A stretch of 64,000 bases of DNA, taken from positions 1,099 to 65,098 of IMG/VR virus record IMGVR_UViG_3300009091_000015; one strand, 5' to 3'. Below are positions 4,063-61,062 of this stretch, piece after piece (positions within the stretch are counted from its first letter, which is position 1; the number at the start of each line of letters is the position of its first letter). This DNA comes from a virus (lineage: Duplodnaviria > Caudoviricetes). The notes under the pieces were generated by a model. It made no database searches, was not told where the DNA came from, and saw nothing but the letters and a program-made list of their open reading frames with translations. The position numbers and the translations under genes are program-made.

Positions 4063-4081
4063 GCCTTCTCTCCTTTCAGCT

Positions 4082-5224: not shown

Positions 5225-5351
5225 TCGCAGACCTCCTTACTTGACCTCGCACGATTTTCCACGATGTTGCACGGCACGTCAAGGACCAGCCACCGCTCTC
5301 CCTCGCAAAGCTCGGGGAGAGCGGGGCTGACAAAACTGACAGAACGACCGC

Positions 5352-5379: not shown

Positions 5380-5414
5380 TCTGAGTGGCGACTGCCAACA
5401 ACGGAGGAAGGCAC

Positions 5415-5657: not shown

Positions 5658-5658
5658 G

Positions 5659-6090
5659 ATGGCGGACCTATGGGCGACTGACGCTGGCCGGGCGATGATG
5701 ACGGACTACCTGGAGCGGCTCGCCTCAGCCCCCAGCGAAGTCCTCAGCGCCCTGCTGTTCCTGCATGAAAACCCGCAGGACTTCATTGAGCACTGGAGGT
5801 ACACCGGGCGCTGGCGTCAGTATTACACCGCCCCGTGGCGGCGGCTCGTGGAGGATGGATTCATCCAGTTTCACCACGAGAAGAAGCGTCAGAAGTCCCG
5901 AGCCGTCTACACCCTGGCCGACGAAAACGTGACGTGGCTGCTGATCGGGGTGCTGGAGCTGATCCTCCGCAAGATCGAGCGCCAGCGCTGCGATGTGCGT
6001 AGTTTCCTCCGCTACGCCTCGGCTGGGCCGGATCGCGGAGACTTTGAACAGGTGCTCAGATACAAGGCGGACCGCCGACCCAATGCTTGA
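5659..6090 (+). CDS. Hypothetical protein
   Basis: 143-aa ORF, GAGGTG SD. Confidence 0.7.
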   Translation: MADLWATDAGRAMMTDYLERLASAPSEVLSALLFLHENPQDFIEHWRYTGRWRQYYTAPWRRLVEDGFIQFHHEKKRQKSRAVYTLADENVTWLLIGVLELILRKIERQRCDVRSFLRYASAGPDRGDFEQVLRYKADRRPNA

Positions 6091-34113: not shown

Positions 34114-35385
34114 ATGGCCGAGGAACAGAAGAAGAAGCGCAGCAGATTCGGGGAGGAGTTCCACGAGCTGTTCCCGCAGTTGATCCTCCCGGCGGGGCTC
34201 GGCCTGCTCTCGTCGTACAACCCGATGGCGACTGCTGGAGTCAGGACCGGGCTTGAGGCGACCCAGCTGTTCAACGCCATGAGGGAGCAGCGGAAGGACA
34301 GGGCGTGGGAGGACAAGGCAAGAGAGGCCATCATCAAAGCCTCCGCTGAGCAGAGGGGGGCGCTTGAGAAGGACAGGGCAGAGTACCTCGACGAGCAGAC
34401 ACAGGAAAACATGCGGGCCACCTACCTCAACACTGGGAGAGTGCGTGAGGGCGGGGCCGTCGTCCCGACATCGAAGCCGGATGCGGCCACCGAGGCCGAG
34501 CAGATGCCCTACTTCCATGAGATGTTCGGTCCTGCCTCTGGTGATTACGGGGCCTTCGGTGCGACGCCGTCTGATCGCATGGCTTCTGAGTTCGCCTTGA
34601 ATGTTGGGCGCGGGCTTTCGCCTGAAGGACAGGCCACTCCGGGGACGCTCCCGTTCGCAACGCAGACCTCTGAGATTGGCCCCCTCATGGCTAAGCAGAT
34701 GCAGGAGGCCAGGTCTGACGTTGACACCAGCGACTACGATCAGAAGTTGTACTTCCATGACCTGCTGGCGGCGACTGCCCTGACCAGCCCAGCTCAGGCT
34801 GCGAACGTCGGCCTGTGGAGCCAGTACCAGGAACGCGGTGCAGACCTGGAGCTTGAGCGGCTCAGGACCATGTACGACCTCCAGAGCCTGAGCGACGAGG
34901 ATGCCCACCACTTGAAGGAAGCGGAGATCCTCCTGCGCAAGGGCCTGCGTGTCGCGGCGGAGCGGGAGATCGCGCTCATCAAGGCCAAGCCTATCCCTTC
35001 GTATGGTGGGGCCTGGGCTCCAACTGGTGTAATTGGGCAGGCTGGCATCCCAGAGTATCAGTACCACGCTGGGACGCCGACTCCGACTGGCGGTGGGGCG
35101 AAGAGCTATCTCAATCTCCCACTTGAGGAGATGAACCAGACCCAGCTTGGTGAGCGCATTCGCGCTCTCACGGCGCAGGCTGTTGCAACAGAGGACAAGC
35201 TCGCCGGGTCCAATGAACAAGCTGTCCAGAATGCGTGGCAGCTCGTCTGGGATGCCGAGGCAATCTACCGTCAGAAGTTTGGCAAGAAGGCTGTGGGCAG
35301 TCCACAAAATCCAAACCCCACTGGCACCACCACGACGACCACTGCTCCGCCATCGGACATCCCGCTCGCTGAACTGCTTGGGTGA
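34114..35385 (+). CDS. Putative ejection protein
   Basis: 423 aa, AGGAG SD, position. Confidence 0.6.
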   Translation: MAEEQKKKRSRFGEEFHELFPQLILPAGLGLLSSYNPMATAGVRTGLEATQLFNAMREQRKDRAWEDKAREAIIKASAEQRGALEKDRAEYLDEQTQENMRATYLNTGRVREGGAVVPTSKPDAATEAEQMPYFHEMFGPASGDYGAFGATPSDRMASEFALNVGRGLSPEGQATPGTLPFATQTSEIGPLMAKQMQEARSDVDTSDYDQKLYFHDLLAATALTSPAQAANVGLWSQYQERGADLELERLRTMYDLQSLSDEDAHHLKEAEILLRKGLRVAAEREIALIKAKPIPSYGGAWAPTGVIGQAGIPEYQYHAGTPTPTGGGAKSYLNLPLEEMNQTQLGERIRALTAQAVATEDKLAGSNEQAVQNAWQLVWDAEAIYRQKFGKKAVGSPQNPNPTGTTTTTTAPPSDIPLAELLG

Positions 35386-38300
35386 AGACAATGCCAGCCC
35401 CGATCCCACCGGCACCTGGGCTCACTGATCCGCAGCAGACTGGGACCAGCAGGGAAGACTGGCTGTACTTCAAGTCACCGGAGTACACGGAGCTGCCGCT
35501 GCCGGAGAAGCTCTCCAAGTTCAACAGCGTGGCGAGGAGGAGCAACACCTACGCCACGATGCCATGGGCGGAAAGGGAGAAGCTGCGCACCAAGATCCTC
35601 GGGGTCAACAGCACTCTCGATGTCTTCAAGCACGAAGCCTTCCCGGCCCTGGAGACGGTAGATCAGAACGATCTTTTCAACAGCTACGTCCAGGGGTCTA
35701 CAACATGGGAGGGCCTCGACACTGAGAAGAAGAAGAAGGCCCGTGCCAAGTGGGTGCCTGCCTTCGCTGCAGGCCAGAAGCAGCAGAAGGTTCAGGAGAC
35801 GCTGCGGGCTGGCATCGAGCGCCAGAACACGCTTCCCGGCATAGACATCGAGATGCCTGAGAGCCTGCAGCCGCAAGTCCAGGCAGAGCCCTCGGAGGAT
35901 GAGTTCCAGCGCCGGGTGTACTACGCCTCCATCGGGCGCAGCATCGACGAGGAGGGGAACCTCAACATCCCACGCCGTGGGAAAGAACCGTACAAGGCAC
36001 CAGCCTACGTCTTCGCCATGCCTGGTATGTCCGTGGCTGAGCAGCAGGGGATCGGGGATGCTTTCGTTGAGCAGCTGAAAGACCCGGAGGTGTCCCGCTG
36101 GTGGGAGTTCACCAAGCGGCAGCAGAAGGCTCTCGCCTCGAACCCGGAGTTCACGCCCGAGGATCTAGGGGCCTTGGAGAGAGCCGGGAAGGGCCTCACT
36201 GCAGGGCTGGCACGGATGGCTTCGACGCCTGTGACTGCCTGGTCGATGATGCAGGCCGGTCATGGCATGACGAAGGCGGCAGAGGAGACCGCGAAGAAGG
36301 CCCAGAAGATCAGCGGGGTGATGGCAGAGGGCGGCTATCGTCCACTCAGGATGTCCGACTATTCCGGTGGCGACGTGGCGGGTTGGACGACGGCTCTCTT
36401 GGAAGGGGTGGCCACCACTCTACCAACGACCGCTGCTGCGGCCACCGTTGGGGCCGTGACTGGCGGCATGGGGGCTCCCCCGCTCCTTGGCAGCATCGCC
36501 GCTGGAGCCGCGCTCGAAATCCCGATGGTGTACCAGGACGTGTACGAGGCCACCGGCAAGCTGGAGCCCGGCCTTGCCACTGCTCTCGGCGGGCTCGCTG
36601 GCGTGCTTGAAGGATACGGGGCTGGCGGGATGTCGAAGCGCCTGATAGATGCTGGCGTCCCGCGCAGCGTCATCAGCAGGGCGCTCGTGAAGATGGCGAG
36701 TGGCAAAGAGCTACTCAAGGACATGAGTCAAGAGGCTCTGACTGAAGTTGCGCAGACATTCCCAGAGGCGCTGGCCATAGCCATTGCAGAAGACCCCACC
36801 ATGAAGATGGACTTCGAGACTGCTCTGGAGTTTGTCAAGAAGACAGCGCCAGAGGCAGCCGAGTCCGGGGTCACTGGGTTCTTCACCCCGCTCGCTGTCT
36901 CCGGCCCGGCGATGATAAGGCAGGACATCCGGGCGCGTCAGCCTCTGCCAATTGACCCAGCCGAGGTGGATGCTGTTGCCAGGGCCAGCATGAGGCCGAC
37001 CGGGCAGGGCCAGCTCATCATCGACACGGAGGAGGCTCAGGGTGTCCGCGCCCCCTCAATCCCAGGGGCAGCGCTCGGGCCGGAGGCGATGGAAGCGGGC
37101 CGGGCCAGGGCCGCTGCAGAGCAGGCGGCGTACCGCGAGCAGGTGACTGCCGAGGATGCGACGCAGGCCCAGGCTGAGATCGACGCCTACCGGGAGCGGG
37201 CCAGGGCCAGGGGGGCCGAGGAGCCCGAAGTCCAGCTCAACGAGCGGATGAATGCGCTCGGGCCGGAGGACCAGGCCCAGGTTCGGGATCGCACCACCGA
37301 ACTGATGGCGCAGATGCGGGCGCGGTTTGTCGAGCAGTTCGGGGAGGAGCGCGTCACCCCAGCCATCGAGCAGAACATCACCCGCCGAGCCTGGGACCAG
37401 GCGCTCACGGAGATGAACGCGCAGCCCGCCCCAAGGCCGGAGGTGCTGGGGCCGACCGGCGAGTCACTGACAGCGCCAGAGCCGCTGCCTGCTGGCCCAG
37501 TGGTTGTGCCGGGGCGGGTGCAGGACGAGCGCCTGGCGGCAGAGGCGGAGCAGCGCCGAGCTGCAGCTCGCGCAAGCATGCAAGCCCAAGGGCTGGTTGA
37601 GGGTGCCAGAGCACGGCTCGCCCTCCCACCCAGGCTCGTGATTGCCGGGGAGCGCAAGCGGGAGTCGGAGCAGGCTGCCGCTGACATCCTCGCCAAGCTC
37701 CACAGCGACGACACGCTAGGGCAGGGCCTGGCTGACATGCAGGCACTGGCCGACCAATACGGCGAGGCGCTCCAGGCCCACCTGAATCTGCAGGCTGAGC
37801 GTGAGGCGCGGGCTCGTGCAGCACGGGCGAAGCTGGACGAGCTCATCCAGGAGATCGGGAGGACGAAGCCCGGCTCGAAGCGCAACACGGCCTTGCAGGA
37901 AGAGATCGACGCCCTGCAGGAGACAGAGATCATCGACTCCCTCGAAGAGACGGAAGACGAAGCGGCTGCTCGCGAGCGGGTGCGGTTCATCGAGGATGCG
38001 CACGCCTACATCATGGATCGTGTCACTCCAGACATGACGCCGCAGCTGTCCGCCAACCTGGACCGGATCACGCAGGGCTCGCTGCGCTGGGCGGCTCGGG
38101 TCTTTGAGCAGAACGGGATGCCGGAGCAGGCGGCGTGGGCGCAGAGGGCGGCTGACGATCCGCAGCTCGCCAGGGTTGTGCCGGAGAACATCGTCAACAG
38201 CCTGATCGAAGACGCCCGCCAGACTGCGGCCAGGGTAAACGAGAGAGAGCAGCGCCTGGCCAACCCGCGCAAGCTGAAGAACTCGCAATGGAGGCAGCTC

Positions 38301-41300
38301 GCTGCTGAAGCGCAGACGCTGCAGGAAGTGGAGCTACTGCGAGAGGAGTACATGCTCGCCCCGAAGCGTGGGCAGCAGGGGCGCTATGACCCCAAGCTGC
38401 TCGACTACTTCCACGACCGATGGATGACGCTTCACGGTGAGATGACAGGCATGGTCGAGGAGGCGCTCGGCCCTGCCCCTGAAGAAGTAACAGAACAGAG
38501 GGCGGAGACACCTTCCGAAGAGGCGGCGGCGGCGGTCTCAGAGGTGGTCCAACCAGAGCAAGAAACAGAACCCGCTGAGGAGGGTGCTCCGCCCGCTCCT
38601 ACTGTGACGGAGACGGTCGCGCCGACCGACTTCACGACCACAACCACGGCGCAGCCGCGTCTTGGCAAGCGAGCACGCCGCAAGATCAACAGGGCGAAGT
38701 CGTTCTGGGAGAGGAAGCTGAACGCCGCGAAGACGCCGGAGGCAGTCGAGGCTGTCCGCGAGCAGATGCCAGACAACCTCCCCGACGACATGGCGCAGCG
38801 GATGTTCGACCAGCGCATGGCTGACGTGACGAAGTCGCAGCCGCCTGCTCCCAAGCGGAAGGGTCGCGGCAAGCGTGCGGCAGCGCCAGCTGTCGAGCCA
38901 GCCCCTGCCCCGGAGCCTGCCGTCGAGGCAGCCCCCGAGCCGGAGGTTGCTGAAGAGGCCCCCAAGAAGCCAGCCAAGAAGAAGGGCAAGAAGCACAACA
39001 CTCGCAAGCCGTCCGCTCCTCAGCAGGCAGCGCCGACGATGAAGGCCCCGCCGAAGCCGAAGGGCAAGACCTCCCGTCGCTTCGTTCGCGCCATCGAGAA
39101 CGCAGAGCGGGAGTCCGATCTCTCAAACGTCATGGTCGTCTACTTGCGGAAGGTTGCGGAAGGGCAGAGGGACGAGGCCGTCATCCACGCCTACGAGGTC
39201 AGGGCTCGCAAGCTGCGGTTCGATGCGCAGTATGGGAAGACCGGGCCTGTTCAGGAGGCGCAGCCTTTCACTGAGCCGCTCAATCCGGCGCAGGTCAGGG
39301 GGTTGGAGATTGGCAGGCCAGGACAGGAAGTTCCGCCAGTACCGCCCGTGCGTCTGACGCCGACTCCTGCTGATCGACGGCGCGGTCCACGAGCCCCGGT
39401 CCCGCTGGAGCGCCCGAGCCCAGAGTTCCTTCGCACCAGGTTTGCGCAACTCCAGAAGGAGATGGCTGACGTTCTGGCCAGGATCGAGGACCGGCTGGAT
39501 GCGATCAACGAGTCCGAGATGCTCGGCCCGACCGCTAAGGTGGCAGCGCATGAAGCCATGATGGACATGACCGGCCCGCACTGGGCGCTCTACCGGAAGC
39601 TGAACGCCCGGCGCATCAGGGCTGCGAAGCTGATCTCTGACGCTCTCGTCGAGGATGGGGGCGTCTCACTGATCGGGCAGGAGCTGGAGAAGGACGGCGC
39701 GGCCCGTTACCTGAAGCTGGCCGAGCTGGCCCAGGTGCTGCGTGACAACAGGTGGGAGACGCTGCGCATCGTCTACGTTGACGCCAACGGCGTCATCATG
39801 GACCATGAATTGCAGACCATACGAGCCCCAGGAGGAGCGCCCCTGATCCCATACCCGAGCGATGCCAAGCGGGCGCGGCAGGGTGACAAGGCCGCTGATC
39901 TGTATAGGGGCATCGGGAAGAAGTGGGCGGATGACATCCGCAAGAAAGCCAAGCGACTCGGCGCTTCAGGGGTTTACTTCGTCCACAACCACCCGCACTC
40001 GGAGACGAATAACCTGATGTCTTCTCCAGACATCTCAGCAACGATCCACGTTCACGACAATCTGCTCGGCGATCTCCTCATCGGCCATGTGCTCATCAAC
40101 GACCGCGTCGGGCAGTACATCCCTGGTGACATTTCTCAGATGGCTGGCCTGCAGGACACCATGTCCACCACGGAGAAGCTCAATCGCCTCCGACCGCTTG
40201 TCGTCTCTTACGACTTGCGGGCTTCAGTCGAGCGAGTTCCTCCAAAGCAGGGCAAGGGGCCTGGCTTCGGAGTTGCGGTCGAAGGTTACACGCTAGCTCC
40301 GACTGTCAAAGAAGACGGGTCGCCGCTGACCTTCGCTGATGAAGACGAAGCCAATGACTTCTATGAGGACAGAGGGCTCACGCTCGGGGAGATCGTGAAG
40401 GATCTGGAAGAGGCCGGGATGAATGACGAGCAGCTCTGGGTCGTCTTCACCGCCTTCGTAATCAAGGATGGTCAGAACGTCGAGGAGACTCTGTACGCCA
40501 CGCCATTCAGGAGAGAGGCGTTCAGCTTTGAGCCGCTCGCTGCGGACTGGTCAGGCGACACCATGGCGGCGGAGTCGCAGGCTGACGCATTGGCCGGAAC
40601 GATCCGTGGGATAGCTCGCCCCCTCGGTGCGCACGGCGCTATCGTTGTCGGCATGAGCAACATGGACGAGGAACTTCTGGATGTCCTCGGAACCTACTAC
40701 AGAACCGGACTCATCACCGATGTCTACTTCCTGGACGCTCCTACTGCCACGGCATCATCGCTGGGCGGTGGATTTGCCACGGAGGGACAGATGGGTAGGG
40801 CGGGACACATCCCGGCCTTGATGGTTGGCGCGTCTGGCAGAGGGATACCAACCCCCCCGGTCGGCCCCGGCTGGGCGACCCGAGGCGCGGCCACTCCACC
40901 GGCTGCGCCAGCAGCCCCCGCTGCACCAGCTGCGCCAGCAGCCCAGCCAGCACCAGCCGCTCCCGGCACGGCCCCCACTGTCACGCGGGGGCAGGGTCTC
41001 CGTGATCTGGCCGGGCTGCCCAGGCTCGGGGCTGACCGCACGCTGGCCGACCGCTTCCTCCACCGCATCTTCCGCAAGGGGCCTGAGGGTTGGGAGAGCC
41101 CGCTCCGGGCGAAGGCCATGCGGTTCTTACGTGACCAGTTCAACATCCATGGCGGGGACATCCCGAAGGGGGTAGCGCGGCTGCTCGAAGCTCGGGAGTA
41201 CGCCCGTGAGCATGCCCGGCTCGATAGCCGAACGATGCAGGCCAGGCTCACGAACGTCATCAACAACCTCAAGCGGGACGGACATGATGAGGGTCAGGTC

Positions 41301-44300
41301 CGCGAAGCCATCAAGATGGTGACGGAAGGCGCGATGACGCCGAGTGACCTGGCGCTTCGGCTCGACGTGCCGATGGACAACCCGCTCATCCGTGCCTTGG
41401 AGGGGATTCACCAGGAGCACCTCGACTGGCAGCAGGCGATAGCAAGCTGGCGAGGCATGAGCCCTCAATTGAAGGAGATCATCGAGGAGCAGGTCTACTA
41501 CCAGACCCGCTTCTACCAGCGGTGGTTGCTCGGTGACTACTTCATCCCGAACGACGCCGACTTCCAGAATGCTCGCCAGATCATGGAGGACGACCTGGTG
41601 GAGGAGATCAACCAGGTCATGCGCAGGGCCGGTGATCTGCGGGGCATCCGCCAGCCGGTGGATATCGCAGCCTACCTGGAGACTGGTGACGACACCCTGC
41701 TCGCCAACCTGTCGGCCAGCAGGCAAGGCTCGATCCGAAGCCTGCGCAATCACTACATGCAGCTGGCGGACCTCGTGCGCAGCATCCAGCGTGGGCCGAA
41801 CAACACCTACCAGGCGATCATCGACCTGGGCGAGATCCACGACGTGGCGCTCAAGGCGGTCAACTCCTACCTCCAGCAAGACCCGGTCGGGCCGGAGACC
41901 ACGAGCGGAGTCGGGACTGCGAACTTCATCCACCGCAAGCTGAACGAGGCGTTCCGCAAGCTGTACGGCGAGGTGACGGACCCGACCTATCGCGAGCCAA
42001 CCACGGTCGAAGTGCAGCAGAACATCCTCGCCAACATGGTGATGATGGAAAAGCTGTTCCAGGAGGGCGGGAACGCCGGGTGGTGGACGAGCCGTCGCAG
42101 TGGGACACATTCGGTCCAGCTTGGGAGCGAGACCAACCGCCGTGACAAGCTGCGCTACGGCCCCATGGCTGGCAAGTGGGTGACGCCAGGCATAGCGAAG
42201 GCGCTTGAGTCCAAGATCCCGAGCAGCAGTCTGGCATCGAAGATCGCCTCCATCCTCTGGCTCGGGCCGCAGGCTGGGATGCGGGCAACGAAGCTGCTGT
42301 GGGCCAAGACGATTGGCAGGAACGGGGCAACCTCAGTCTTCGGCCAGGCGCTGAGTTGCGGCGATGTGTACTACGGGAGTTTCTGGGGCCACCTCACAGA
42401 GGGCATCGCCATCGCATGGAAGGCCAATCCGCTCGCCAACATCGGGCCGGACATCACGCTTTACGGGGTCAGGCCGGGGCAGAAGAACGTCTGGGCCATG
42501 GAGAAAGTGGCGGAGGCAGCGAAGGAGGGGTACTACTCGCACAAAGCGCAGTCCCTGTCGCAGGGCGTGAAGGCCATCATCGAGAGCCCGCTGTTCTCTC
42601 CCTTCGGGCTCACCGGCAAGATCAGAAACTTCCTCCAGCATGCGATGGAGGCATACGCACTGATCGACTTCCCGGTGAAGTACGCCGCCTACAAGACCCA
42701 CCTCGAAGAGTACGAGAAGGCCGGGGTGCCAACCGAGAAGGCGAAGGCTGGGGCCAGGGAGTGGGTGGCCCTGCACTACCAGAACCGGCACCGTGGGCCG
42801 AAGGCGTTGGACACCGTAGCCCTGGTGCCTGGTGCCGACTACGTCGGCTACACCTACGACAGCGGCAGGATGCTGGCGAACGGAGCGCACACAGCCATCA
42901 CGCACGCCTTCAAGGGCGACCCAGTGATGCCAAACAAGGAGATCAACCTCCGGCCCCTGGTCGGCTTCATCAGCGCCAGGCTCCTCCCGCTCTCCGCTCT
43001 CGGTGGCGGCAACTGGCTCTACAACACGGCGTTCCGACCACTGCTCACCGATGCCTGGGCCAAGTTTGCATCCCAGACCGAGGGCGCTGGCAAGATGGCG
43101 GACGAGATCCTCGGCTACTTCTTCCCGCACGACGACGAGGACAAGGAGAAGAAGGTCGTCAAGCGCACCCCGCTGACGAACGAGGAGATGGTCAACTTCC
43201 GAAAGTTCTGGCCCGACTACGACAAGAACATGAACGCGCTGGCCTGGAAGACGGAGTACGAGGACGGCTCGGTAGAACTCAGCTACACCGCCATGAATGG
43301 CAACACCGCCTTCCCGGTGGAGGAGTGGATCTCCGGTGCGCTGCAGACTTCCATGGAGGGCGGCACCCCGTTCTGGAAGGCGCTGCTCGCCAACATGGCG
43401 CAGAACCTCGGGCCAGGCATGTACCTGGAGGAGCAGCTGGAGCTGTGGACTGGGCTGGACACAGCGTTCGACGTAGACCGTGAGGGCATTGGAGAGCTGA
43501 TCGGTTCCCGTATAGCTCACCACCCGAACAAAGACGAGGGCAAGATTGCGAAGGAGCGCATCTCCCACTTTCTCATCAACGTGATGACCGGCCAGCTCGG
43601 CCCGACCATCCAGTACACCCACGACTACGTGAAGCGGCAGAAGCTCGGGCAGAAGGCACAGCCTGGCAGCATGATCGCGCCCAAGTCGCTGCATGATGTG
43701 CGGCAGAAGTTCACCAGGTTCGTCCGCACCTACCACTACGACAAGGACGACCTTGGCAGACTGCTCGCCTATCAGATAGCCCCCATCTCAGAGGACATCC
43801 ACACTGACAAGTACAACGCCGGGGCGCAGCGCCGGGCTGAGGTGGACAAGGGTGTCGCCACGCAGGAGGACATCGCTCGCTCCATCTCCGGGCGCAAGGA
43901 ACTGGCGCGTGATCTAATGAAGGCCCACGAGCTAGTCCGCGCCTTCAGGTCGCTACCAGCTACCAGCGAGATTGATGATGTTCAGCTATCTCTGAAACTG
44001 CAGGCGGCTGGCTCGAAGAAGCGAGCGCCCATCGGCGACGACGAGGCGATGGCAATCATCACCGGGAAGTTTGACAGGCTGAAGCCCTGGGAGTCGAAGG
44101 CGAAGCCAACCTACGAGGGGACCGGCGAACACATAGCGGTCAAGTACATGAAGGAGAACTGGGGTCATATCAGCTACTCAGAGTTGCAGAAGCTGATGAT
44201 CGAGCAGGGCTACAAGGTGGAGCCGGACATCAAGAAGTTCAAAACCTGGGCAAAGTCCAGGTGGGCGAAGTGGAAGGAGCTTGGGGAGACGTTCGAGGAA

Positions 44301-44309
44301 GAGGAGTGA
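35382..44309 (+). CDS. Large internal virion (polyvalent-like) protein with JAB/RadC-like domain
   Basis: 2975 aa; ETLRIVYVD...AKRLGASGVYFVHNHP...SSPD near 39756-40030. Confidence 0.8.
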   Translation: MKTMPAPIPPAPGLTDPQQTGTSREDWLYFKSPEYTELPLPEKLSKFNSVARRSNTYATMPWAEREKLRTKILGVNSTLDVFKHEAFPALETVDQNDLFNSYVQGSTTWEGLDTEKKKKARAKWVPAFAAGQKQQKVQETLRAGIERQNTLPGIDIEMPESLQPQVQAEPSEDEFQRRVYYASIGRSIDEEGNLNIPRRGKEPYKAPAYVFAMPGMSVAEQQGIGDAFVEQLKDPEVSRWWEFTKRQQKALASNPEFTPEDLGALERAGKGLTAGLARMASTPVTAWSMMQAGHGMTKAAEETAKKAQKISGVMAEGGYRPLRMSDYSGGDVAGWTTALLEGVATTLPTTAAAATVGAVTGGMGAPPLLGSIAAGAALEIPMVYQDVYEATGKLEPGLATALGGLAGVLEGYGAGGMSKRLIDAGVPRSVISRALVKMASGKELLKDMSQEALTEVAQTFPEALAIAIAEDPTMKMDFETALEFVKKTAPEAAESGVTGFFTPLAVSGPAMIRQDIRARQPLPIDPAEVDAVARASMRPTGQGQLIIDTEEAQGVRAPSIPGAALGPEAMEAGRARAAAEQAAYREQVTAEDATQAQAEIDAYRERARARGAEEPEVQLNERMNALGPEDQAQVRDRTTELMAQMRARFVEQFGEERVTPAIEQNITRRAWDQALTEMNAQPAPRPEVLGPTGESLTAPEPLPAGPVVVPGRVQDERLAAEAEQRRAAARASMQAQGLVEGARARLALPPRLVIAGERKRESEQAAADILAKLHSDDTLGQGLADMQALADQYGEALQAHLNLQAEREARARAARAKLDELIQEIGRTKPGSKRNTALQEEIDALQETEIIDSLEETEDEAAARERVRFIEDAHAYIMDRVTPDMTPQLSANLDRITQGSLRWAARVFEQNGMPEQAAWAQRAADDPQLARVVPENIVNSLIEDARQTAARVNEREQRLANPRKLKNSQWRQLAAEAQTLQEVELLREEYMLAPKRGQQGRYDPKLLDYFHDRWMTLHGEMTGMVEEALGPAPEEVTEQRAETPSEEAAAAVSEVVQPEQETEPAEEGAPPAPTVTETVAPTDFTTTTTAQPRLGKRARRKINRAKSFWERKLNAAKTPEAVEAVREQMPDNLPDDMAQRMFDQRMADVTKSQPPAPKRKGRGKRAAAPAVEPAPAPEPAVEAAPEPEVAEEAPKKPAKKKGKKHNTRKPSAPQQAAPTMKAPPKPKGKTSRRFVRAIENAERESDLSNVMVVYLRKVAEGQRDEAVIHAYEVRARKLRFDAQYGKTGPVQEAQPFTEPLNPAQVRGLEIGRPGQEVPPVPPVRLTPTPADRRRGPRAPVPLERPSPEFLRTRFAQLQKEMADVLARIEDRLDAINESEMLGPTAKVAAHEAMMDMTGPHWALYRKLNARRIRAAKLISDALVEDGGVSLIGQELEKDGAARYLKLAELAQVLRDNRWETLRIVYVDANGVIMDHELQTIRAPGGAPLIPYPSDAKRARQGDKAADLYRGIGKKWADDIRKKAKRLGASGVYFVHNHPHSETNNLMSSPDISATIHVHDNLLGDLLIGHVLINDRVGQYIPGDISQMAGLQDTMSTTEKLNRLRPLVVSYDLRASVERVPPKQGKGPGFGVAVEGYTLAPTVKEDGSPLTFADEDEANDFYEDRGLTLGEIVKDLEEAGMNDEQLWVVFTAFVIKDGQNVEETLYATPFRREAFSFEPLAADWSGDTMAAESQADALAGTIRGIARPLGAHGAIVVGMSNMDEELLDVLGTYYRTGLITDVYFLDAPTATASSLGGGFATEGQMGRAGHIPALMVGASGRGIPTPPVGPGWATRGAATPPAAPAAPAAPAAPAAQPAPAAPGTAPTVTRGQGLRDLAGLPRLGADRTLADRFLHRIFRKGPEGWESPLRAKAMRFLRDQFNIHGGDIPKGVARLLEAREYAREHARLDSRTMQARLTNVINNLKRDGHDEGQVREAIKMVTEGAMTPSDLALRLDVPMDNPLIRALEGIHQEHLDWQQAIASWRGMSPQLKEIIEEQVYYQTRFYQRWLLGDYFIPNDADFQNARQIMEDDLVEEINQVMRRAGDLRGIRQPVDIAAYLETGDDTLLANLSASRQGSIRSLRNHYMQLADLVRSIQRGPNNTYQAIIDLGEIHDVALKAVNSYLQQDPVGPETTSGVGTANFIHRKLNEAFRKLYGEVTDPTYREPTTVEVQQNILANMVMMEKLFQEGGNAGWWTSRRSGTHSVQLGSETNRRDKLRYGPMAGKWVTPGIAKALESKIPSSSLASKIASILWLGPQAGMRATKLLWAKTIGRNGATSVFGQALSCGDVYYGSFWGHLTEGIAIAWKANPLANIGPDITLYGVRPGQKNVWAMEKVAEAAKEGYYSHKAQSLSQGVKAIIESPLFSPFGLTGKIRNFLQHAMEAYALIDFPVKYAAYKTHLEEYEKAGVPTEKAKAGAREWVALHYQNRHRGPKALDTVALVPGADYVGYTYDSGRMLANGAHTAITHAFKGDPVMPNKEINLRPLVGFISARLLPLSALGGGNWLYNTAFRPLLTDAWAKFASQTEGAGKMADEILGYFFPHDDEDKEKKVVKRTPLTNEEMVNFRKFWPDYDKNMNALAWKTEYEDGSVELSYTAMNGNTAFPVEEWISGALQTSMEGGTPFWKALLANMAQNLGPGMYLEEQLELWTGLDTAFDVDREGIGELIGSRIAHHPNKDEGKIAKERISHFLINVMTGQLGPTIQYTHDYVKRQKLGQKAQPGSMIAPKSLHDVRQKFTRFVRTYHYDKDDLGRLLAYQIAPISEDIHTDKYNAGAQRRAEVDKGVATQEDIARSISGRKELARDLMKAHELVRAFRSLPATSEIDDVQLSLKLQAAGSKKRAPIGDDEAMAIITGKFDRLKPWESKAKPTYEGTGEHIAVKYMKENWGHISYSELQKLMIEQGYKVEPDIKKFKTWAKSRWAKWKELGETFEEEE

Positions 44310-46876: not shown

Positions 46877-46903
46877 AAAGGCCCCCGGAATCCGGGGGCC
46901 TTT
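46877..46903. terminator. Bidirectional intrinsic terminator
   Basis: AAAGGCCCCCGG-AAT-CCGGGGGCCTTT between convergent operons. Confidence 0.8.
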
Positions 46904-54119: not shown

Positions 54120-54203
54120 GCCTCACCTCCATGGGATTCAGTCTGCCTCGCAGTGGGAGAGAGCGGAGGTGCAGTGACCCTCTCCCATGCGAGGCAGAAC
54201 GAA

Positions 54204-54527
54204 TCACACTGAGTTCTCTCGATCCATCCAGAGGTACGGGATGCGGTTCACCTCCGGCGAGAAGCAGCTGTTGCCAGTCTTGCATGTGAACAGGGCGACG
54301 ACATCCGAGAAGGTGCGGAGCACACACTTCATGTTGCTCCAGTCGTTGAAGATGTGAGTGCCGCACTCCCTCACAACCCAGAAGAATGTCTCGTCGTCAT
54401 CCATCCCATGTACGGATGCCTTGTCATGCCGAGTGAAGTCTTCCTTGTAGTGCGTTGGCTGGCCGAGCTTCATCACCTCGATGGTCATCAGTGCGTAGAG
54501 GTGATCGCGAACCTGCGGATGGCTCAT
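54204..54527 (-). CDS. Hypothetical protein
   Basis: TGATG overlap; DF..HD...F.W.VRECGTH pattern. Confidence 0.7.
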   Translation of the reverse strand: MSHPQVRDHLYALMTIEVMKLGQPTHYKEDFTRHDKASVHGMDDDETFFWVVRECGTHIFNDWSNMKCVLRTFSDVVALFTCKTGNSCFSPEVNRIPYLWMDRENSV

Positions 54528-54964: not shown

Positions 54965-55031
54965 CTCCCCTCTCCTCTGCCCTCACAAAGTGAGGGGCAG
55001 AGGAGAGGGGAGGAGTCGGCCTCCTCCCCTC
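54965..55031. repeat. Intergenic hairpin element, copy A (TCAC-AAA-GTGA apex)
   Basis: About 22-bp stem, AAA loop 54987-54989, one bulged G, overlapping second hairpin. Confidence 0.85.
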
Positions 55032-55036
55032 GTCGC

Positions 55037-55285
55037 TCATCCCCAGTTCCGCAGCCTGCGGATGAAGCAGTCGCTGCCATGATCGACGTTCCTGATGTTG
55101 AACTCGATGCCTCGCTCCTTCAGTGCGTCGATGAACAGGGCAGCATCGCAGTCCTCTTCGAGGAACACGCTGTTGCCATCCACGTAGCTGAAGCACGACG
55201 GCCTCACGCCGTAGGTCTCCATCATGCGCCGGTCCACTTGGAGCCAGCCATGGCCGGGGTCGGAATGGAAAGTGAGGGTGAGCAT
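55037..55285 (-). CDS. Conserved phage early protein
   Basis: DPGHGWL...FSY...FLEEDCDA. Confidence 0.8.
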   Translation of the reverse strand: MLTLTFHSDPGHGWLQVDRRMMETYGVRPSCFSYVDGNSVFLEEDCDAALFIDALKERGIEFNIRNVDHGSDCFIRRLRNWG

Positions 55286-55515
55286 CAGTCACCTCCTTCC
55301 TTGGCGAGCATCCGCTCCTCCACCAGCTCCTGCTCCGCATCGGCGGCGACGTTGACAATCTTGATGGCGAGCTGCTCGATCTCCTCAGCTTCGATGATGA
55401 TGTCTGAGCAGTTGTCCTCAGTGAGCCCGAGCCCCTCGCTGAATGCCTCCTCGATGTTCAGGATCGCAACCTTGATCCGCCTCACGCAGTCCCGCATCTC
55501 CTGCTTCGGTGTCAC
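55285..55515 (-). CDS. Hypothetical acidic protein
   Basis: GTGA and TGATG couplings. Confidence 0.65.
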   Translation of the reverse strand: MTPKQEMRDCVRRIKVAILNIEEAFSEGLGLTEDNCSDIIIEAEEIEQLAIKIVNVAADAEQELVEERMLAKEGGD

Positions 55516-56174
55516 GTCACCCTCCCTTGGTATGCAGCCTTCACGACGGCGACCGTGTCATAGTCCTTGGGCGCAGCGTCCGCCACTCGCAGCGGCATGA
55601 GCAGCCCGACCAGCTCACCCTCGACCTGGAGCTGGATGGGTGCAGTCACGTCGTGTCGCTTGCACCAATACTCCACACCAGGGATGAGGTACTCGATCAG
55701 CTTCGCCTTGCTCGGGTCGATGGGAACGGGCGGGTCGATCATGCCAGGGGACATGAGCAGCACGGACACCGCCTTGCCAACGCAGACGTTGACCAACTCA
55801 TCCCTGGTGCCACGCCACAGTTCCGACTTGTCGTTCTTCGCGCTGTTGAAGATGCGTTCGATGCCTTCGAGCCTGACCTTGCCGTTCGCCGCTCCTTCAG
55901 TCATGCTCTTGTACGGAGGCTTGCGTTGCAGTGCCGATGCCTTGAGCAGGATGGTGCCGTCTGTGTACCACCCGCTGCCAGCCGGGGCAGCGTTCCCGTC
56001 CTGAGTCCACGCCTTCCACTTGTTGCGCTTGAAGTCTGCGAAGCGGACGCCTTGGCTCTGCTCCTCCTCCTCATGCTCCACCACCTGCGGTGCCGTCGGT
56101 TCGTTCGCCATGCCGAGCATCTGCTGCATCTCAGCGATGGCATCGTCGATCTTCGCCAGCAATGCCTCACTCAT
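55512..56174 (-). CDS. Hypothetical protein
   Basis: 220 aa; YTDG...GLLMPLR, reminiscent of clamp-like domain ends. Confidence 0.7.
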   Translation of the reverse strand: MSEALLAKIDDAIAEMQQMLGMANEPTAPQVVEHEEEEQSQGVRFADFKRNKWKAWTQDGNAAPAGSGWYTDGTILLKASALQRKPPYKSMTEGAANGKVRLEGIERIFNSAKNDKSELWRGTRDELVNVCVGKAVSVLLMSPGMIDPPVPIDPSKAKLIEYLIPGVEYWCKRHDVTAPIQLQVEGELVGLLMPLRVADAAPKDYDTVAVVKAAYQGRVT

Positions 56175-56601
56175 TCGATGCCTCCTTCTTGCGAGAGATC
56201 ACTTCGTCGAACAGCGTGTGGTAGGTGTGGCTGTCCATGAACGCCACCCTCTTGGCGAGCACCTGCTCCAGGAATTCGGGCGTGATGATGAGCCGCTTGA
56301 TCGCATCCTCAGTCAGCACACAGTAGGTGCCGGTCGGATAGACGCCCCTCTGCATGGCTGGCTGTCCCTTGTAGGTCGGCTCCTCGCTCGCCTCGATGAT
56401 GGTGATGCCCAGGTCCATGCCTGACTGGCACTTGGCACATGGCTCGTAGGTAACGCAGGCATGGCGTGGTGCCTCGATGTCATGGAGTCCGCCTCGATCC
56501 ATCCTACCCATGAGCAGGACCGTGCCATCGTCCTGCCCGCACCAGAAGCAGACACCGAGCGATGGATTGACGCCGTACTTCTCAGACAGTCGGATGCTCA
56601 T
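56167..56601 (-). CDS. Conserved phage hypothetical protein
   Basis: MSIRLS.KYGVNPS..CF.CG...EPC..C. Confidence 0.75.
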   Translation of the reverse strand: MSIRLSEKYGVNPSLGVCFWCGQDDGTVLLMGRMDRGGLHDIEAPRHACVTYEPCAKCQSGMDLGITIIEASEEPTYKGQPAMQRGVYPTGTYCVLTEDAIKRLIITPEFLEQVLAKRVAFMDSHTYHTLFDEVISRKKEASNE

Positions 56602-56813
56602 GGCTCCTCCTCTCCTGGCAGCCTCGGTATCGAGAGATGCCCACAGTCGTTGCCTTCCTCGTCGCTGTCCACCCACACAACCACAGCCTTGATCCCTCCC
56701 TTCTCGATGACCAGTCCGAAGGACTCCGTGCCAGGAGTCAGCGTCGTGCCGATGATGGTGTAACCGATCAGCCGCTTCGCCTGCTCCGCTTCCCACTTGG
56801 CGTTGTGACTCAT
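56598..56813 (-). CDS. Hypothetical protein
   Basis: FGL...D.EGN..GHL; AGGAGG SD. Confidence 0.7.
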   Translation of the reverse strand: MSHNAKWEAEQAKRLIGYTIIGTTLTPGTESFGLVIEKGGIKAVVVWVDSDEEGNDCGHLSIPRLPGEEEP

Positions 56814-56823
56814 CGCTCCTCCT

Positions 56824-56893
56824 TTCCCTTCTCCTCTTCGCTCTCACAAAGTGATGAGCGAAGAGGAGAAGGGAAGGCCGTCGCCTCCCCTCC
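56824..56893. repeat. Intergenic hairpin element, copy B
   Basis: About 24-bp stem, AAA loop 56848-56850, one bulged T. Confidence 0.85.
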
Positions 56894-56898
56894 ATGCC

Positions 56899-57195
56899 TC
56901 ACTCCGATTGCTCGCCGTACTTCCAGTCGCTCAGGCATTCATGGCAGTAGCCATGATCTGCGATGTGCGTCTTGGCATAGGCCCCCGTGTCGATGCGATG
57001 GCAGCGAGGACACTCAACCTCCTCCCGCTCGCCCTCTGCCACGTCGAGCATGGCATCGAGCAGATGGATCACGCCGGTCACGGCCAGCCATTCGTCGCTC
57101 TCCCTGGTCAGGCGCATCTCAAGCAGCGCATCCCTCTGCTCCCTGAGCAGGTCAACGTCCACGTTCGGCACGGTGATGGTGATGCCTTCACTCAT
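56899..57195 (-). CDS. Hypothetical zinc-binding protein
   Basis: CPRC...CHEC; GGAGG SD. Confidence 0.7.
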   Translation of the reverse strand: MSEGITITVPNVDVDLLREQRDALLEMRLTRESDEWLAVTGVIHLLDAMLDVAEGEREEVECPRCHRIDTGAYAKTHIADHGYCHECLSDWKYGEQSE

Positions 57196-57955
57196 AGTGG
57201 GGCCTCCTCGACGGGTATCCCTGCCCAGGCTGGAGCTGGATGCGTACCCTGTACTCGCCGTCGCTGTTCGTGTGGTACATGGATGGCCGACCCTCGTTGC
57301 TAAACTCGCCGTCCTCCAGGAATCGCGCCAGCATGTACGCATCCTTCAGGCATGACACGGGGTACACTCGCTCGATGCTGCCCACCGTGTACCACCAGCC
57401 GCCCTCCTCCGGGCCACCGTATGCCTGGTCCTCCAGGTAGACGTTGACGAACAGCTGAGTCACGCCGTCAGCCATTCGCTCGGCGCACTCGGGACACAGC
57501 GTCACTCGCAATGGCTCGGCATCCATCGGCAGCGCCTTGCTGTACACCTCCCAGGCATGGAAGGTGGGAGTGCCATCGTCAAGGAAGTAGTCCAGCCAGT
57601 CGAACTCTCCGTCGCCCGGCTCCTCCTTGTCATCGGGCCTGTCCTTCAGGCATGCCTCGCAGATGTCGTGCCTCATCATGTGAGGCATCGAGTACATCAG
57701 GTGCCGCTCCCCGATCTTCTCGATCCAATGCGCTGGCTCGTTGTCAATGTCCGGGACCACCACATCCTCAGCGAATGCCTTGACATTCAGCGCCCCAGTC
57801 TGCTCATCCCTGTACTCGACCGACACCTCGCCGTCGTACCTGATCTCGTGCCATGTCTGGCATGCCTCGCACCACCACTCGACCACCGTGTCCATGGTGC
57901 CGTCATCGCACAGCCGCACGTCCTGGACACCAACCTTAACCTGGTCAATCCTCAT
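57188..57955 (-). CDS. Multi-domain phage early protein
   Basis: C-term VY..DQAYGGPEEGGWWY...RPHYE; CxxC pairs. Confidence 0.75.
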   Translation of the reverse strand: MRIDQVKVGVQDVRLCDDGTMDTVVEWWCEACQTWHEIRYDGEVSVEYRDEQTGALNVKAFAEDVVVPDIDNEPAHWIEKIGERHLMYSMPHMMRHDICEACLKDRPDDKEEPGDGEFDWLDYFLDDGTPTFHAWEVYSKALPMDAEPLRVTLCPECAERMADGVTQLFVNVYLEDQAYGGPEEGGWWYTVGSIERVYPVSCLKDAYMLARFLEDGEFSNEGRPSMYHTNSDGEYRVRIQLQPGQGYPSRRPHYE

Positions 57956-58253
57956 CGAACACCTCCTCCAATTCCTCGAAGTCAGGGTCGCCATACTCGC
58001 TCGGCATCTCGACGCCACAGTGATGGCACCACTCGGGCGGACCCTCCCAGTAGACATCGCATGCCACGATGTTCCACTGCGGGTCGCTCCTCTCATGCCT
58101 GAACTCCCACACTTTGTTGACACACTCGGCGCAGATCGAGTCCCCATCCTCCGTGATGTAGCGGATGTTGTAGCCGCCAGGCCATGCGCAGGCCGGGAGC
58201 TGAGCCCCAGGTTGCACGCCAGCCATCTTCCATACCGCCAGCCCGATGCTCAT
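57945..58253 (-). CDS. Conserved phage zinc-binding protein
   Basis: AWPGGY...DG..IC..C...YWEGP...C..CG. Confidence 0.8.
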   Translation of the reverse strand: MSIGLAVWKMAGVQPGAQLPACAWPGGYNIRYITEDGDSICAECVNKVWEFRHERSDPQWNIVACDVYWEGPPEWCHHCGVEMPSEYGDPDFEELEEVFDED

Positions 58254-58268
58254 GCCGCACCTCCTTCG

Positions 58269-58315
58269 ATCCGTCCCTTCGGGTCATCCGTCCCTTCGGT
58301 TCATCCGTCCCTTCG
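58269..58315. repeat. 17-bp-period tandem repeat, 3 copies
   Basis: ATCCGTCCCTTCG at 58269, 58286, 58303. Confidence 0.9.
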
Positions 58316-58507
58316 AGATTCCCGCTCGCTCAGCACGTTCTGGTACTCCTGCACAATGGCCGGGTCGTAGCGCATGAAGATCATGTCTGCGACCTTGCGC
58401 CGCAACAGCGGGAGCGGAAGCCCCTCTGCCATGGCGCGGGCCTCGGCCCGCAACAGCCGCTCGTTCCTGCCATTGCGAGCCGCCGCAGTCCCTCGCTTGC
58501 CTGCCAT
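58301..58507 (-). CDS. Hypothetical protein
   Basis: AGGAGGTG SD. Confidence 0.65.
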   Translation of the reverse strand: MAGKRGTAAARNGRNERLLRAEARAMAEGLPLPLLRRKVADMIFMRYDPAIVQEYQNVLSERESRRDG

Positions 58508-58516
58508 GCCGCACCT

Positions 58517-58582
58517 CCTCTCTCCTCTCCTCTCTCCTCACAAAGTGAGGGAGAGAGGAGAGGAGAGGGGCCGAAGCCCCTC
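58517..58582. repeat. Intergenic hairpin element, copy C
   Basis: About 24-bp stem, AAA loop 58542-58544, one bulged G, overlapping GAGGGGC-CGAA-GCCCCTC hairpin. Confidence 0.85.
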
Positions 58583-58597
58583 CCCCGCTGTGCTAGC

Positions 58598-59046: not shown

Positions 59047-59079
59047 AAAAAAGCCCGGCGGGGCGAAGCCCCACCGGGC
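59047..59079 (-). terminator. Intrinsic terminator
   Basis: GCCCGGTGGGGC-TTC-GCCCCGCCGGGC-TTTTTT on minus strand. Confidence 0.85.
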
Positions 59080-59102: not shown

Positions 59103-59855
59103 CTACCGCGAGACGGGGCGGATGGTGATCTCGAAGAGATCCGGGCCGTCCAGCTTCTTGCCGTTGCCCTTGGCAACCCCGAAGGCGTCGAGCAGCTCGC
59201 GGCGGACGTGCATGTCTCCCACGAAGCCACCGGCATAGCCGGTCGCCTCGACGTTCAACGGCACGCCGTTGACAGTCTCCCGGATGACCAGGGAGTTTTG
59301 GGTCGCCTTGACTTTCGTCAAGAGGATCGTGATGACGCCGTCCTTGACGGCGACGGCCTGCTTCACGGACGGCGCGGGAGGCGAAGCCTTGCGCGTGGTC
59401 CGCTTGGGCTTCGACGCCGTGGCCGGCGCCGGGATCGTGACCGGAGCGGCGACCGGCGCGGCAGCCTTCGGCTGCTCCTGCGGGGTCGGGGTCGGCGCGG
59501 AGAACTGCGCCTTGACCATGTTGCCGACGATGGTGGTGAGAGCAGCAAGCTGCTCCGCGATCTGGTCGATGTCCGCCTTGGCCATGTTGACCCTCCTAGG
59601 GCCTGAAGCTGCTACGCAGCTTCGGTAGTGATTCGCTATGCGAATCGGGTCGAAGATCCGCTCGATTCTCTCCTCCGGAGAGAACTGCGGCGGGCCGTCA
59701 TACTCCATCCTCCGCAGCCAGGCTTCGCCTGGCAGCGGATCGTCCTCGAAATCGGGGTCGAGCAACCCAGCCTGCAGGAGCAGAAGCTCCGCTTCTGCCG
59801 TGAGCACTGGGTTGAACGGCTCCCGAATTCGCCGGACCCTACCCTCGTCTCTCAT
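59103..59855 (-). CDS. Hypothetical early protein with an in-frame second start at 59585
   Basis: AGGAGG SD before both ATG 59855 and ATG 59585; Ala/Pro/Lys linker. Confidence 0.65.
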   Translation of the reverse strand: MRDEGRVRRIREPFNPVLTAEAELLLLQAGLLDPDFEDDPLPGEAWLRRMEYDGPPQFSPEERIERIFDPIRIANHYRSCVAASGPRRVNMAKADIDQIAEQLAALTTIVGNMVKAQFSAPTPTPQEQPKAAAPVAAPVTIPAPATASKPKRTTRKASPPAPSVKQAVAVKDGVITILLTKVKATQNSLVIRETVNGVPLNVEATGYAGGFVGDMHVRRELLDAFGVAKGNGKKLDGPDLFEITIRPVSR

Positions 59856-59973
59856 CCTGCACCTCCTCGACGAAGTCTCGGAGGTGCAGGTGAGAGACGG
59901 GGTGGCCAGCCCCAACTGCACCTCCCAGCCATGGACACCACGCAGGAGCCACCAAAGGTGGCCGCGTGCGGTG

Positions 59974-60252
59974 TCAAACCCAGTCAAGCCGTCCCCTCGC
60001 AATGACGCCGTCGATCTCCAACTCCACGCGCAGATCCCCGCGCCGAGTTTCCATGACCCTGATCCGGTACGCTTCGCCGTCTCCCACGCGCAGTTCCACG
60101 CATTCCACCGCCCGCGGAACGCCATGGAGCATTTTGGCGAATACCCTACCCCTCGCCAGAGCCCCGCGCAGAACTGCGCACAGCTCCTCGCACGGGGTCA
60201 TGAACTCGGGATCGGACGCCACGACGCCAGCCACTTCCGCCAAACTCGACAT
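59974..60252 (-). CDS. Hypothetical protein, first gene of leftward early block
   Basis: AGGAGGTG SD before MSSLAE. Confidence 0.65.
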   Translation of the reverse strand: MSSLAEVAGVVASDPEFMTPCEELCAVLRGALARGRVFAKMLHGVPRAVECVELRVGDGEAYRIRVMETRRGDLRVELEIDGVIARGRLDWV

Positions 60253-60557
60253 GCTGCACCTCCTGACCCCTCTCTTTCGGAGGAGTCGTAAGACTCCTCC
60301 TCCGAGAGAGGGGTCAGAGCTGCCGCCTCCCGCATGCCAACCACGCGCAGATCCGCACAGGGTTGGGGTGTCAAACACTAGTGCCAAAATGGCACTCCCG
60401 TAGGGAGTGAAGTGCCAAAATGGCATGTCACGACTAGTAACCCCATAGGGTTACTAGGGATAGCGTTCGGCCTTTCGCCGTGTGCGCTCACTGGCCGTCA
60501 CGGGCGTTGCATCGCACGACGGCCTGCACATACACACGCGATGGCCCCTTCGGGGCA

Positions 60558-60806: not shown

Positions 60807-61062
60807 GTAACCAGGTGTAACGCACGAGTAACGCAGGAGTAACCGGTGTAACCCACCGGAGTGGTATGTCGGCATGCCGACGTCAAGCTGGATGGATGCC
60901 GATATAGGATGTTAGCCCGACTCGTTAGCGTCCGTTAGCATCCGTTAGCAGCGGTGAGCAGTGGTGAGTAAGATGTAATCATCTGTAATCATGTAATCAG
61001 ATTACACGATTACTGTAATCCGCCGTAAGCCCAAGAAGACGGAAGACGGAAGACGGGAGACG
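60807..61062. repeat. Array of about 10-bp-phased short repeats, origin-like
   Basis: GTAAC x5, GTTAGC x4, GTGAG x2, TGTAATC x4, G(A/G)AGACG x4. Confidence 0.75.

Follow-up and report, generated by a model that had tools for sequence, protein, structure and literature searches.

The window analysed here is a 64-kb stretch (64,000 nucleotides, nt) of an uncultured tailed phage of the Caudoviricetes, IMG/VR record IMGVR_UViG_3300009091_000015, and consists of that 65,098-bp single-contig record minus its first 1098 bases. From about 60,252 down to 46,946 it carries leftward early genes which are tightly packed, have strong GGAGG ribosome sites and are nearly all orphans. Three long hairpins, named A, B and C (Table 1), each occupy a gap of 77-90 nt in this arm, and these are the only sizeable gaps in the run of overlapping or abutting leftward genes. 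An earlier note, made from the letters of the window alone, had described the three elements, and their coordinates and anatomy were confirmed. Their reported spacing of 1.7-1.9 kb also held (the loop centres are 1861 and 1694 nt apart), as did their placement, at all three sites, between the stop codon of one leftward gene and the start of the next.

Architecture and statistics of hairpins A, B and C

The order of elements was the same in all three gaps: stop codon, small G+C hairpin, long hairpin, Shine-Dalgarno (SD) sequence and ATG. In the sense RNA, the long stem has a CU-rich, anti-SD-like 5' arm and a GA-rich 3' arm, which lies beside the SD and forms a run of SD-like words. This polarity (CU arm 5', GA arm 3', UUU loop) with respect to gene direction was found in 3/3 strict and 2/2 loose copies of the hairpin. 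The extra base of A, B and C is always on the right arm of the + strand, that is, on the 5' arm of the sense RNA, and forms a bulge of 1 nt after four pairs from the loop. The position of the SD itself varied: at A an SD-like GGAGAGGGGAG lies within the 3' arm of the stem (ATG of an 80-amino-acid (aa) gene at 54959), at C the sequence GGAGGTG sits at the stem base and partly inside it (ATG of a 68-aa Arg-rich gene at 58507), and at B the SD AAGGAGGAG comes directly after the stem, just outside it (ATG of a 71-aa gene at 56813).

The exact core TCACAAAGTGA occurred only three times, at 54983, 56844 and 58538. When one mismatch was allowed, 4 matches were obtained against 0.57 expected, and none of 100 shuffles gave 4 or more. 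Stems of at least 13 pairs, with a loop of 3-8 nt and at most one irregularity, were sought across all 65,098 bp of the genome, and only A, B and C came up. Folding of about 100 nt of sense RNA gave -53.5 kcal/mol for A, -54.2 for B and -60.5 for C (z = -4.7, -5.4 and -5.0, respectively), and in each case 0 of 200 shuffles folded as stably. The three hairpins are real and well above chance.

When both strands of the whole window were folded in 80-nt windows, seven windows reached -48 kcal/mol or lower. Six of these fell at 54.1-60.3 kb, all of them between genes and either immediately ahead of a start site or surrounding one; the seventh was antisense to the gene of a 2975-aa protein. The 6-kb stretch of A, B and C holds four further long hairpins, at or around ribosome sites, and A, B and C are a sub-family of this larger set. 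Among the four, H0 immediately precedes the SD of the first gene of the leftward arm (ATG 60252), and H5 that of the gene which starts at 54119.

The small companion hairpins had been proposed to compete for the stem base next to the downstream SD. The overlap was borne out, for they share 5-6 nt with the base of the long stem and compete for the arm to which the SD-side arm is paired. Their location was not: they stand on the upstream, stop-codon side, and the one before A begins 7 nt past the upstream stop codon (55037-55039).

Table 1. Hairpins, terminator and selected genes of the window (A, B and C, long hairpins; WC, Watson-Crick; pI, isoelectric point)
Feature	Position	Strand	Description
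Long hairpin A	54965..55012	(-)	22 WC pairs, UUU loop on sense RNA, bulged C on 5' arm
Long hairpin B	56824..56875	(-)	24 WC pairs, UUU loop, bulged A on 5' arm
Long hairpin C	58520..58567	(-)	22 WC pairs, UUU loop, bulged C on 5' arm
Small hairpin before A	55007..55029	(-)	9 bp, 5-nt loop, overlaps base of A by 6 nt
Small hairpin before B	56871..56889	(-)	6 bp including one G.U
Small hairpin before C	58562..58585	(-)	GGGGC-UUCG-GCCCC, extended to 10 pairs, one G.U
Leader hairpin H0	60263..60317	(-)	22 WC pairs in two helices
Looser hairpin	59934..59975	(-)	14 WC and 3 G.U pairs, UUU loop, overlaps stop codon of first gene
Hairpin H1	59838..59905	(-)	29 WC pairs; encloses SD and AUG (59855) of second leftward gene
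Hairpin H5	54135..54205	(-)	27 WC and 3 G.U pairs, 12-nt loop with CACCUCC
Looser hairpin	5293..5324	(-)	UUU loop, same polarity as A-C, z = -4.9
Intrinsic terminator	59053..59079	(-)	Canonical, 12-pair stem then TTTTTT, inside leftward arm
68-aa gene	58301..58507	(-)	Directly after hairpin C; basic product, pI 10.7, Arg-rich N-terminus; candidate binder only
2975-aa protein	35382-44309		No Pfam, PHROG or PDB match

Conservation and change in a second lineage

Protein-seeded scans of viral, metagenome and genome contigs yielded one other lineage, about 90% identical, which comprised two IMG/VR contigs and one 4-kb metagenome contig and is referred to as the relative. Hairpins were found in all three of its A, B and C slots. 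Contigs of run X8 gave the relative-type A site again, and no new hairpin variant came from the contigs listed for four DNA runs. With pairs counted outward from the loop, A differed from its counterpart by 5 two-sided changes, B by 2 two-sided changes and the loss of one whole pair, and C by 5-9 two-sided changes, depending on the register. One-sided stem changes were seen only at the helix defect near the tip, and the changes in the lower stem were all two-sided. The earlier claim that the stems differ yet stay paired was upheld, with full pairing across the copies and in both lineages. The six core stems together hold 146 WC pairs and one peripheral G.U, in the optional outer extension of C.

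The 8-nt apex ACUUUGUG was unchanged in all six sites. The earlier note had regarded both this apex and the bulge as fixed, which is correct within the window genome; the relative keeps the apex, but in all three of its sites a 1x1 mismatch (A.G, A.A or U.U) at pair 3 or 4 replaces the bulge. In 6/6 sites the helix is interrupted 3-5 pairs away from the loop, and the form of this defect is uniform per genome, with three bulges of three in the window and three mismatches of three in the relative. The proposal of a structure-specific recognition element is partly supported by these data, since the stems vary but pair and the eight apex bases are constant. At third codon positions of nine flanking genes 12.3% of sites differed (122/994); the stem pairs changed between the lineages amounted to about 15-28% or more, at least as fast as the silent sites.

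The other hairpins of the arm carried a sense-strand signal. G.U pairs, which form on the sense strand only, were found in H5 (three), in the looser hairpin at 59934-59975 (three) and in two of the small companions, those before B and C. The G.U of the small hairpin before B is A-U in the relative, a one-sided change that keeps the pairing only on the sense RNA, and that of the small hairpin before C is G-C there. At the H0 slot the relative has a different hairpin, of 28 pairs.

The earlier note had proposed asking whether gene-content breakpoints map to the hairpins, and they proved not to be specific to them. About seven such breakpoints separate the window from the relative: four are within about 15 nt of B, of the small hairpin of C, of the loose hairpin and of H0, and the remaining three are at plain gene junctions. 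Such a distribution is expected where hairpins fill the few gaps. One contig of the relative, L117, has an extra stretch of about 530 bases (~3794-4323) exactly between hairpin B and the next gene, and another of about 440 bases (~5468-5908) at a plain gene junction; both are probably additional small genes. Short-read contigs from other metagenomes (runs X4 and X5) end at or near the hairpins, at 54975 and 58508-58544, as is expected for palindromes in short-read assembly.

Searches for further family members gave little beyond these two lineages. The motif had not been recognised as a described one, and the 64-kb window indeed gave 0 Rfam matches at the gathering threshold; below it, only microRNA-precursor models appeared, at 21-36 bits against thresholds of 48-100. 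A covariance model of the kind that had been suggested was built from the three sites. All six sites scored 48-82 bits (A 81.6, B 77.7, C 78.9); in 95 other loci (1,058,475 bases) the best match, to a hairpin of 16 bp and a 7-nt loop in contig L181, reached 34.6 bits, and nothing else exceeded 20 bits. The apex pattern alone was met in at least 115 loci of viral contigs, and a long CU/GA stem accompanied it in none among the matches listed. Protein searches added no more than one cluster, represented by a 220-aa protein of 80% identity encoded on a 1758-nt contig, together with a 229-aa protein with one domain in common. Nine contigs of phages with 30-33% G+C (L013, L046, L052, L081, L088, L092, L101, L106 and L110) have one non-coding hairpin in common, once per locus, with a tip CCCTCACAAAGTGAGGGG (also with an extra G) identical to the tip of A; it is probably unrelated to A, B and C.

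Surroundings of the hairpins and the phage genome

Two looser hairpins with a C-AAA-G-like centre, both said to lie upstream of leftward genes, had been listed beside the three main elements, and both exist. The one at 59934-59975 gave z = -1.7, with 8/200 shuffles folding as well. That at 5293-5324 lies beside a conserved TTGAC box, a few nucleotides before it and ahead of the leftward gene that starts at 5224, rather than in an obvious leader; its pairing is kept in the relative through a compensatory insertion of a C/G pair. Window 5225-5414 is a divergent control region, with repeated GTCAAG words and the TTGAC box right after this hairpin.

Other small elements were noticed in and around the leftward arm. 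A second canonical terminator, besides that in Table 1, was called at 46877-46903. At the head of the arm, 60380-60430 holds two copies of a 15-bp palindrome, GTGCCATTTTGGCAC, just upstream of a TTGACA box; these palindromes look like operators. Short direct repeats lie at 60850-61050, between the divergent early arms and beside the replication-initiator gene (GATTACA-type about five times, TGCTAACGGA-type three times and GTTAC-type about four times), and this cluster is likely an origin or control region. Between the 68-aa gene and the next SD, three tandem units of about 15 nt (GAAGGGACGGATGA-like in sense) occupy 58254-58300 without a stable fold (z = -0.06). A 12-bp hairpin with a GAAG loop, kept in the relative, was seen at 59700-59740 within a 250-aa frame (59103-59855), which may be two genes with an alternative start at 59585.

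The contig of the relative spans the end-to-start junction of the 65,098-bp record, and the genome is therefore essentially complete and circularly permuted. DNA of this phage occurs at freshwater and wetland sites. Its gene products include a small terminase, an SU10-type adaptor, a portal and a major head protein, as well as a RecE-like exonuclease, a DnaB-like helicase and a replication initiator. The head (capsid) protein is 23-31% identical to those of podoviruses from several phyla, and DnaB relatives in genome contigs, at 27-34% identity, belong to Bacilli, Alicyclobacillus, Streptomyces and others. Ten proteins encoded near the hairpins gave no Pfam match and three PHROG matches, one of them labelled 'DNA ligase', and family searches with twenty further proteins were almost entirely blank. 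Neither of the two giant proteins (3124 and 2975 aa) matched a PHROG. The 3124-aa protein is a beta-helix/CBM protein, with Pfam matches limited to beta-helix, CBM and NosD. In the 2975-aa protein the C-terminal 1096 aa resemble the LPD38/LPD39 'polyvalent protein' clusters, and a RadC/JAB-like HNHP...SxxD motif was noticed by eye near residue 1535.

A possible role in processing of the early message

Their position, fixed polarity and abutment to ribosome sites, together with the sense-specific wobble pairs of the companions, point to a role of the hairpins in the sense RNA. We propose, with a probability of roughly 0.45, that A, B and C are punctuation hairpins of an early polycistronic message and are cut by host RNase III. 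The hairpins are probably phage early-message processing and stability signals in an unusually extreme and regular form. A stem of 22-24 pairs makes about two helical turns, the size class that RNase III cuts irrespective of sequence. The intercistronic placement in a co-directional array was found for all three sites, from which we infer co-transcription, and the stems (22, 24 and 22 WC pairs) exceed the length of about 20 bp seen in T7-type RNase III signals. Of the four options raised by the earlier note, an RNase III-type site fitted best, considering the intercistronic position, the stems of more than 20 bp, the abutment to ribosome sites and the sense-strand G.U of the companions.

According to this proposal, A, B, C and at least four other long hairpins would act in the sense RNA of one long leftward early transcript, as punctuation between gene blocks. 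Each perfect helix of 22-24 bp would be a substrate for the double-strand-specific RNase III of the host, and the cut would divide the message into blocks. The small G+C hairpin would end up at the new 3' end, where it would hold off 3' exonucleases, and the next message would begin with the purine-rich 3' arm and the SD, its ribosome site being freed or strengthened. The cutting, the enzyme responsible and the effects on stability and translation are the steps that we infer from the arrangement of the arm.

The nearest precedents are the early signals of phage T7 and the early-mRNA sites of Bacillus phage SP82 with their polypurine 5' stabiliser. The RNase III sites in SP82 early mRNA (B. subtilis) were reportedly described by Panganiban and Whiteley in 1983, and Hue et al. 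are said to have found in 1995 that a polypurine, ribosome-site-like sequence derived from one of these sites acts as a 5' stabiliser. Like A-C, the SP82 sites are several related sites of an early message, and here too a purine-rich, SD-like stretch would head the downstream fragment. The T7 signals (R0.3, R0.5, R1, R1.1 and R1.3) are likewise a small family of hairpins of about 20 bp or more in a co-directional early operon, 1-2 kb apart, with a conserved core and variable stems, adjoining the ribosome site of the next gene. The T7 signals have an internal loop that receives a single cut, and the SP82 targets have internal loops and one cut on the downstream side (PMC1935012), in which they differ from A-C.

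Several points weigh against RNase III punctuation. The internal loop or bubble expected at the scissile site of a T7-type signal is absent from A, B and C, in which the only irregularity is the single defect 3-5 pairs from the loop. Unlike the T7 signals, A-C have stems that are perfect save for this 1-nt defect near the tip, with CU/GA-polarised arms and conservation at the apex. Bacterial RNase III is not known to read loops, yet the apex is the invariant part; the invariant apex and the helix defect are unexplained by RNase III alone, which suggests an additional determinant, either a separate binder or a setter of the cutting register. RNase III also leaves unexplained why G.U pairs are nearly absent and why two-sided change is so fast. 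The other long hairpins have 8 G.U to 137 WC pairs, against 1 to 146 in the core stems. Both this scarcity of G.U and the rate at which stem pairs change relative to third codon positions fit a DNA-level palindrome process as well as, or better than, selection on RNA alone. Both also fit quasi-palindrome correction, an arm-to-arm templating in DNA that may be at work whatever the function of the palindrome. In addition, the covariation rests on three orthologous pairs from two lineages, the hairpin at 5293-5324 is upstream of a promoter-like box and not clearly within a message, and no RNase III gene was found in the phage genome.

A live but less likely rival, in line with the protein-bound switch of the earlier note, is that a sequence-specific RNA-binding protein of phage or host recognises the tip, made up of the UUU loop, its two closing pairs and the bulge or mismatch close by. 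This protein would control translation of the next gene, block cutting of the stem, or modify RNA polymerase in the manner of nut/boxB. The long stem would then merely present the tip, and such binding may coexist with RNase III cutting. The constancy of ACUUUGUG in spite of so many changed stem pairs, and the defect held at every site in a form uniform within each genome, are consistent with a binder, and a basic, Arg-rich protein of 68 aa is encoded right after hairpin C. Compared with the relative, this protein had 7 amino-acid changes in residues 10-28 and 0 in residues 29-68 (16 against 3 nucleotide differences in the gene). Over three variants (window, L117 and L218), the Arg-rich residues 10-28 were hypervariable, with several multi-base codon changes, and the remaining 40 residues were identical. 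The canonical terminator within the arm leaves no room for a promoter after it, which makes control of read-through plausible; A, B and C are downstream of this terminator, however, and not before it. The 68-aa protein had no family match in Pfam or PHROGs and relatives in just two clusters. Given the varied placement of the SD, simple masking of the SD is not common to A, B and C. Lockstep co-evolution of the 68-aa protein and the hairpin form was rejected because contig L218 pairs relative-type hairpins B and C with an N-terminus only 3 residues off the window type, which also counts against this protein as the binder.

Phage lambda can be compared: its N leader contains an RNase III hairpin together with nutL/boxB, and in boxB the Arg-rich N protein binds a GNRA-like pentaloop on a stem of 5 bp. 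The lambda N leader and the present arm both have a long hairpin immediately ahead of an early gene's SD, a small basic, Arg-rich protein encoded just downstream and a terminator in the operon. Unlike boxB, the tip has a loop of three nucleotides on a stem of 3-4 bp with a bulge or mismatch, and a long stem below; unlike lambda, the operon has three such sites, each of them past the terminator. A lambda-type nut site was discarded, as the triloop stands on a long stem, and family searches gave no similarity of the 68-aa protein to N. It would be a long shot that the tip (UUU triloop, 2-4 closing pairs and a groove-widening bulge or mismatch) is recognised by the 68-aa Arg-rich peptide in an N/boxB- or Tat/TAR-like manner, in which terminator read-through and translation of the next gene would be coupled to RNase III cutting, with both partners diversifying fast. 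The pairing is tenable because the Arg-rich segment is the only hypervariable part of its gene and the defect is uniform per genome.

Long 'I-shaped' hairpin terminators have been described for high-G+C Gram-positive bacteria, and A, B and C might accordingly be terminators or attenuators lacking a U-tract, which would divide the early arm into timed units with the small hairpin as the alternative fold. We consider this unlikely. The position at block boundaries and the very stable stems would suit it, as would the overlapping alternative hairpin with 5-6 nt in common with the long stem, and a real terminator is present in the same arm with genes directly after it. No U-run follows A, B or C on either strand, though (the sequences after the stems are AGACC, AAGGAGG and GAGGUG, respectively), the phage has canonical U-tract terminators elsewhere (59053-59079 and 46877-46903), and the invariant apex would be left without a role. 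At the A, B and C sites the scan called no sigma-70-like promoter and no U-tract terminator, and no promoter-like site that could restart transcription follows the hairpins. Ordinary intrinsic terminators do not fit, given the lack of a U-run and of any call at A, B or C.

A role at the DNA level appears quite unlikely. Here, supercoiled or single-stranded DNA would extrude the hairpins or cruciforms, which would act as an N4-like promoter for a special polymerase, an attC- or IS200-like site of single-strand recombination, or a priming or replication signal. Such a role would account for core stems that are perfect palindromes with a single peripheral G.U, for two-sided stem changes that are fast relative to third codon positions, as if the arms template each other, and for an A+T-rich centre with a 3-nt spacer. 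The hairpin sites are also places where metagenome assemblies break, and four of about seven gene-content breakpoints lie close to a hairpin. Neither the fixed polarity nor the close contact with ribosome sites has a reason under this role, and three breakpoints are at plain gene junctions. The promoters of the N4 virion RNA polymerase are hairpins with a 5-7 bp stem and a 3-nt loop; A-C resemble them as three hairpins with 3-nt loops upstream of early genes and a template-strand purine at the loop centre, but differ in their stems of 22-24 bp. No match to phage-type RNA polymerase (PF00940) was obtained in the genome, although the positive control was silent everywhere, and T7-type RNA polymerase motifs were not found in the LPD38/LPD39-like 2975-aa protein by a simple pattern search. 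The N4-like option of the earlier note is thus not supported, and no sigma-factor gene was found in the genome. Integron attC sites have the inverse core sites RYYYAAC and GTTRRRY at the stem base. Like attC, A-C are imperfect palindromes with an extra-helical base, located between gene cassettes; unlike attC, they have no R'/R'' core boxes and are conserved at the tip, not at the base. No GTT-containing box was found at the bases of A, B and C, which are variable CU/GA tracts. The genome had no match to the tyrosine recombinase/integrase family PF00589 (the control matched in 14/14 genomes) and, as it closes on itself through the relative, little of it is missing. The attC-like option, which also had the non-specific breakpoints against it, was not supported.

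Finally, that A, B and C are functionless or selfish CT/GA palindromes, kept perfect by template switching and persisting in tolerant gaps, is very improbable: although the microsatellite-like arms and the fast, always two-sided change would fit, the apex is invariant, the defect is retained in 6/6 sites where pure templating should erase it, the same slots are filled in both lineages with position, polarity and architecture alike at all three, and such hairpins are rare elsewhere (5 with a score of at least 16 in 1,906,172 bases of other phage DNA, 199 loci).

If RNase III punctuation is correct, these hairpins would add an extreme form to the punctuation signals of phage early messages, with perfect 22-24-bp helices and an invariant tip, one arm being an anti-SD mimic and the other a run of SD-like purines. 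They would be a natural test case for how the register of RNase III is set on a perfect helix, for a purine-rich 5' end as message stabiliser outside Bacillus, and for a palindrome that changes faster than silent codon sites without losing a pair. The last of these bears on how selection on RNA is to be told from arm-to-arm templating in DNA when 'covariation' is taken as proof of RNA function. For annotation, the hairpins would mark the sub-units of an operon in which the early genes are nearly all orphans.

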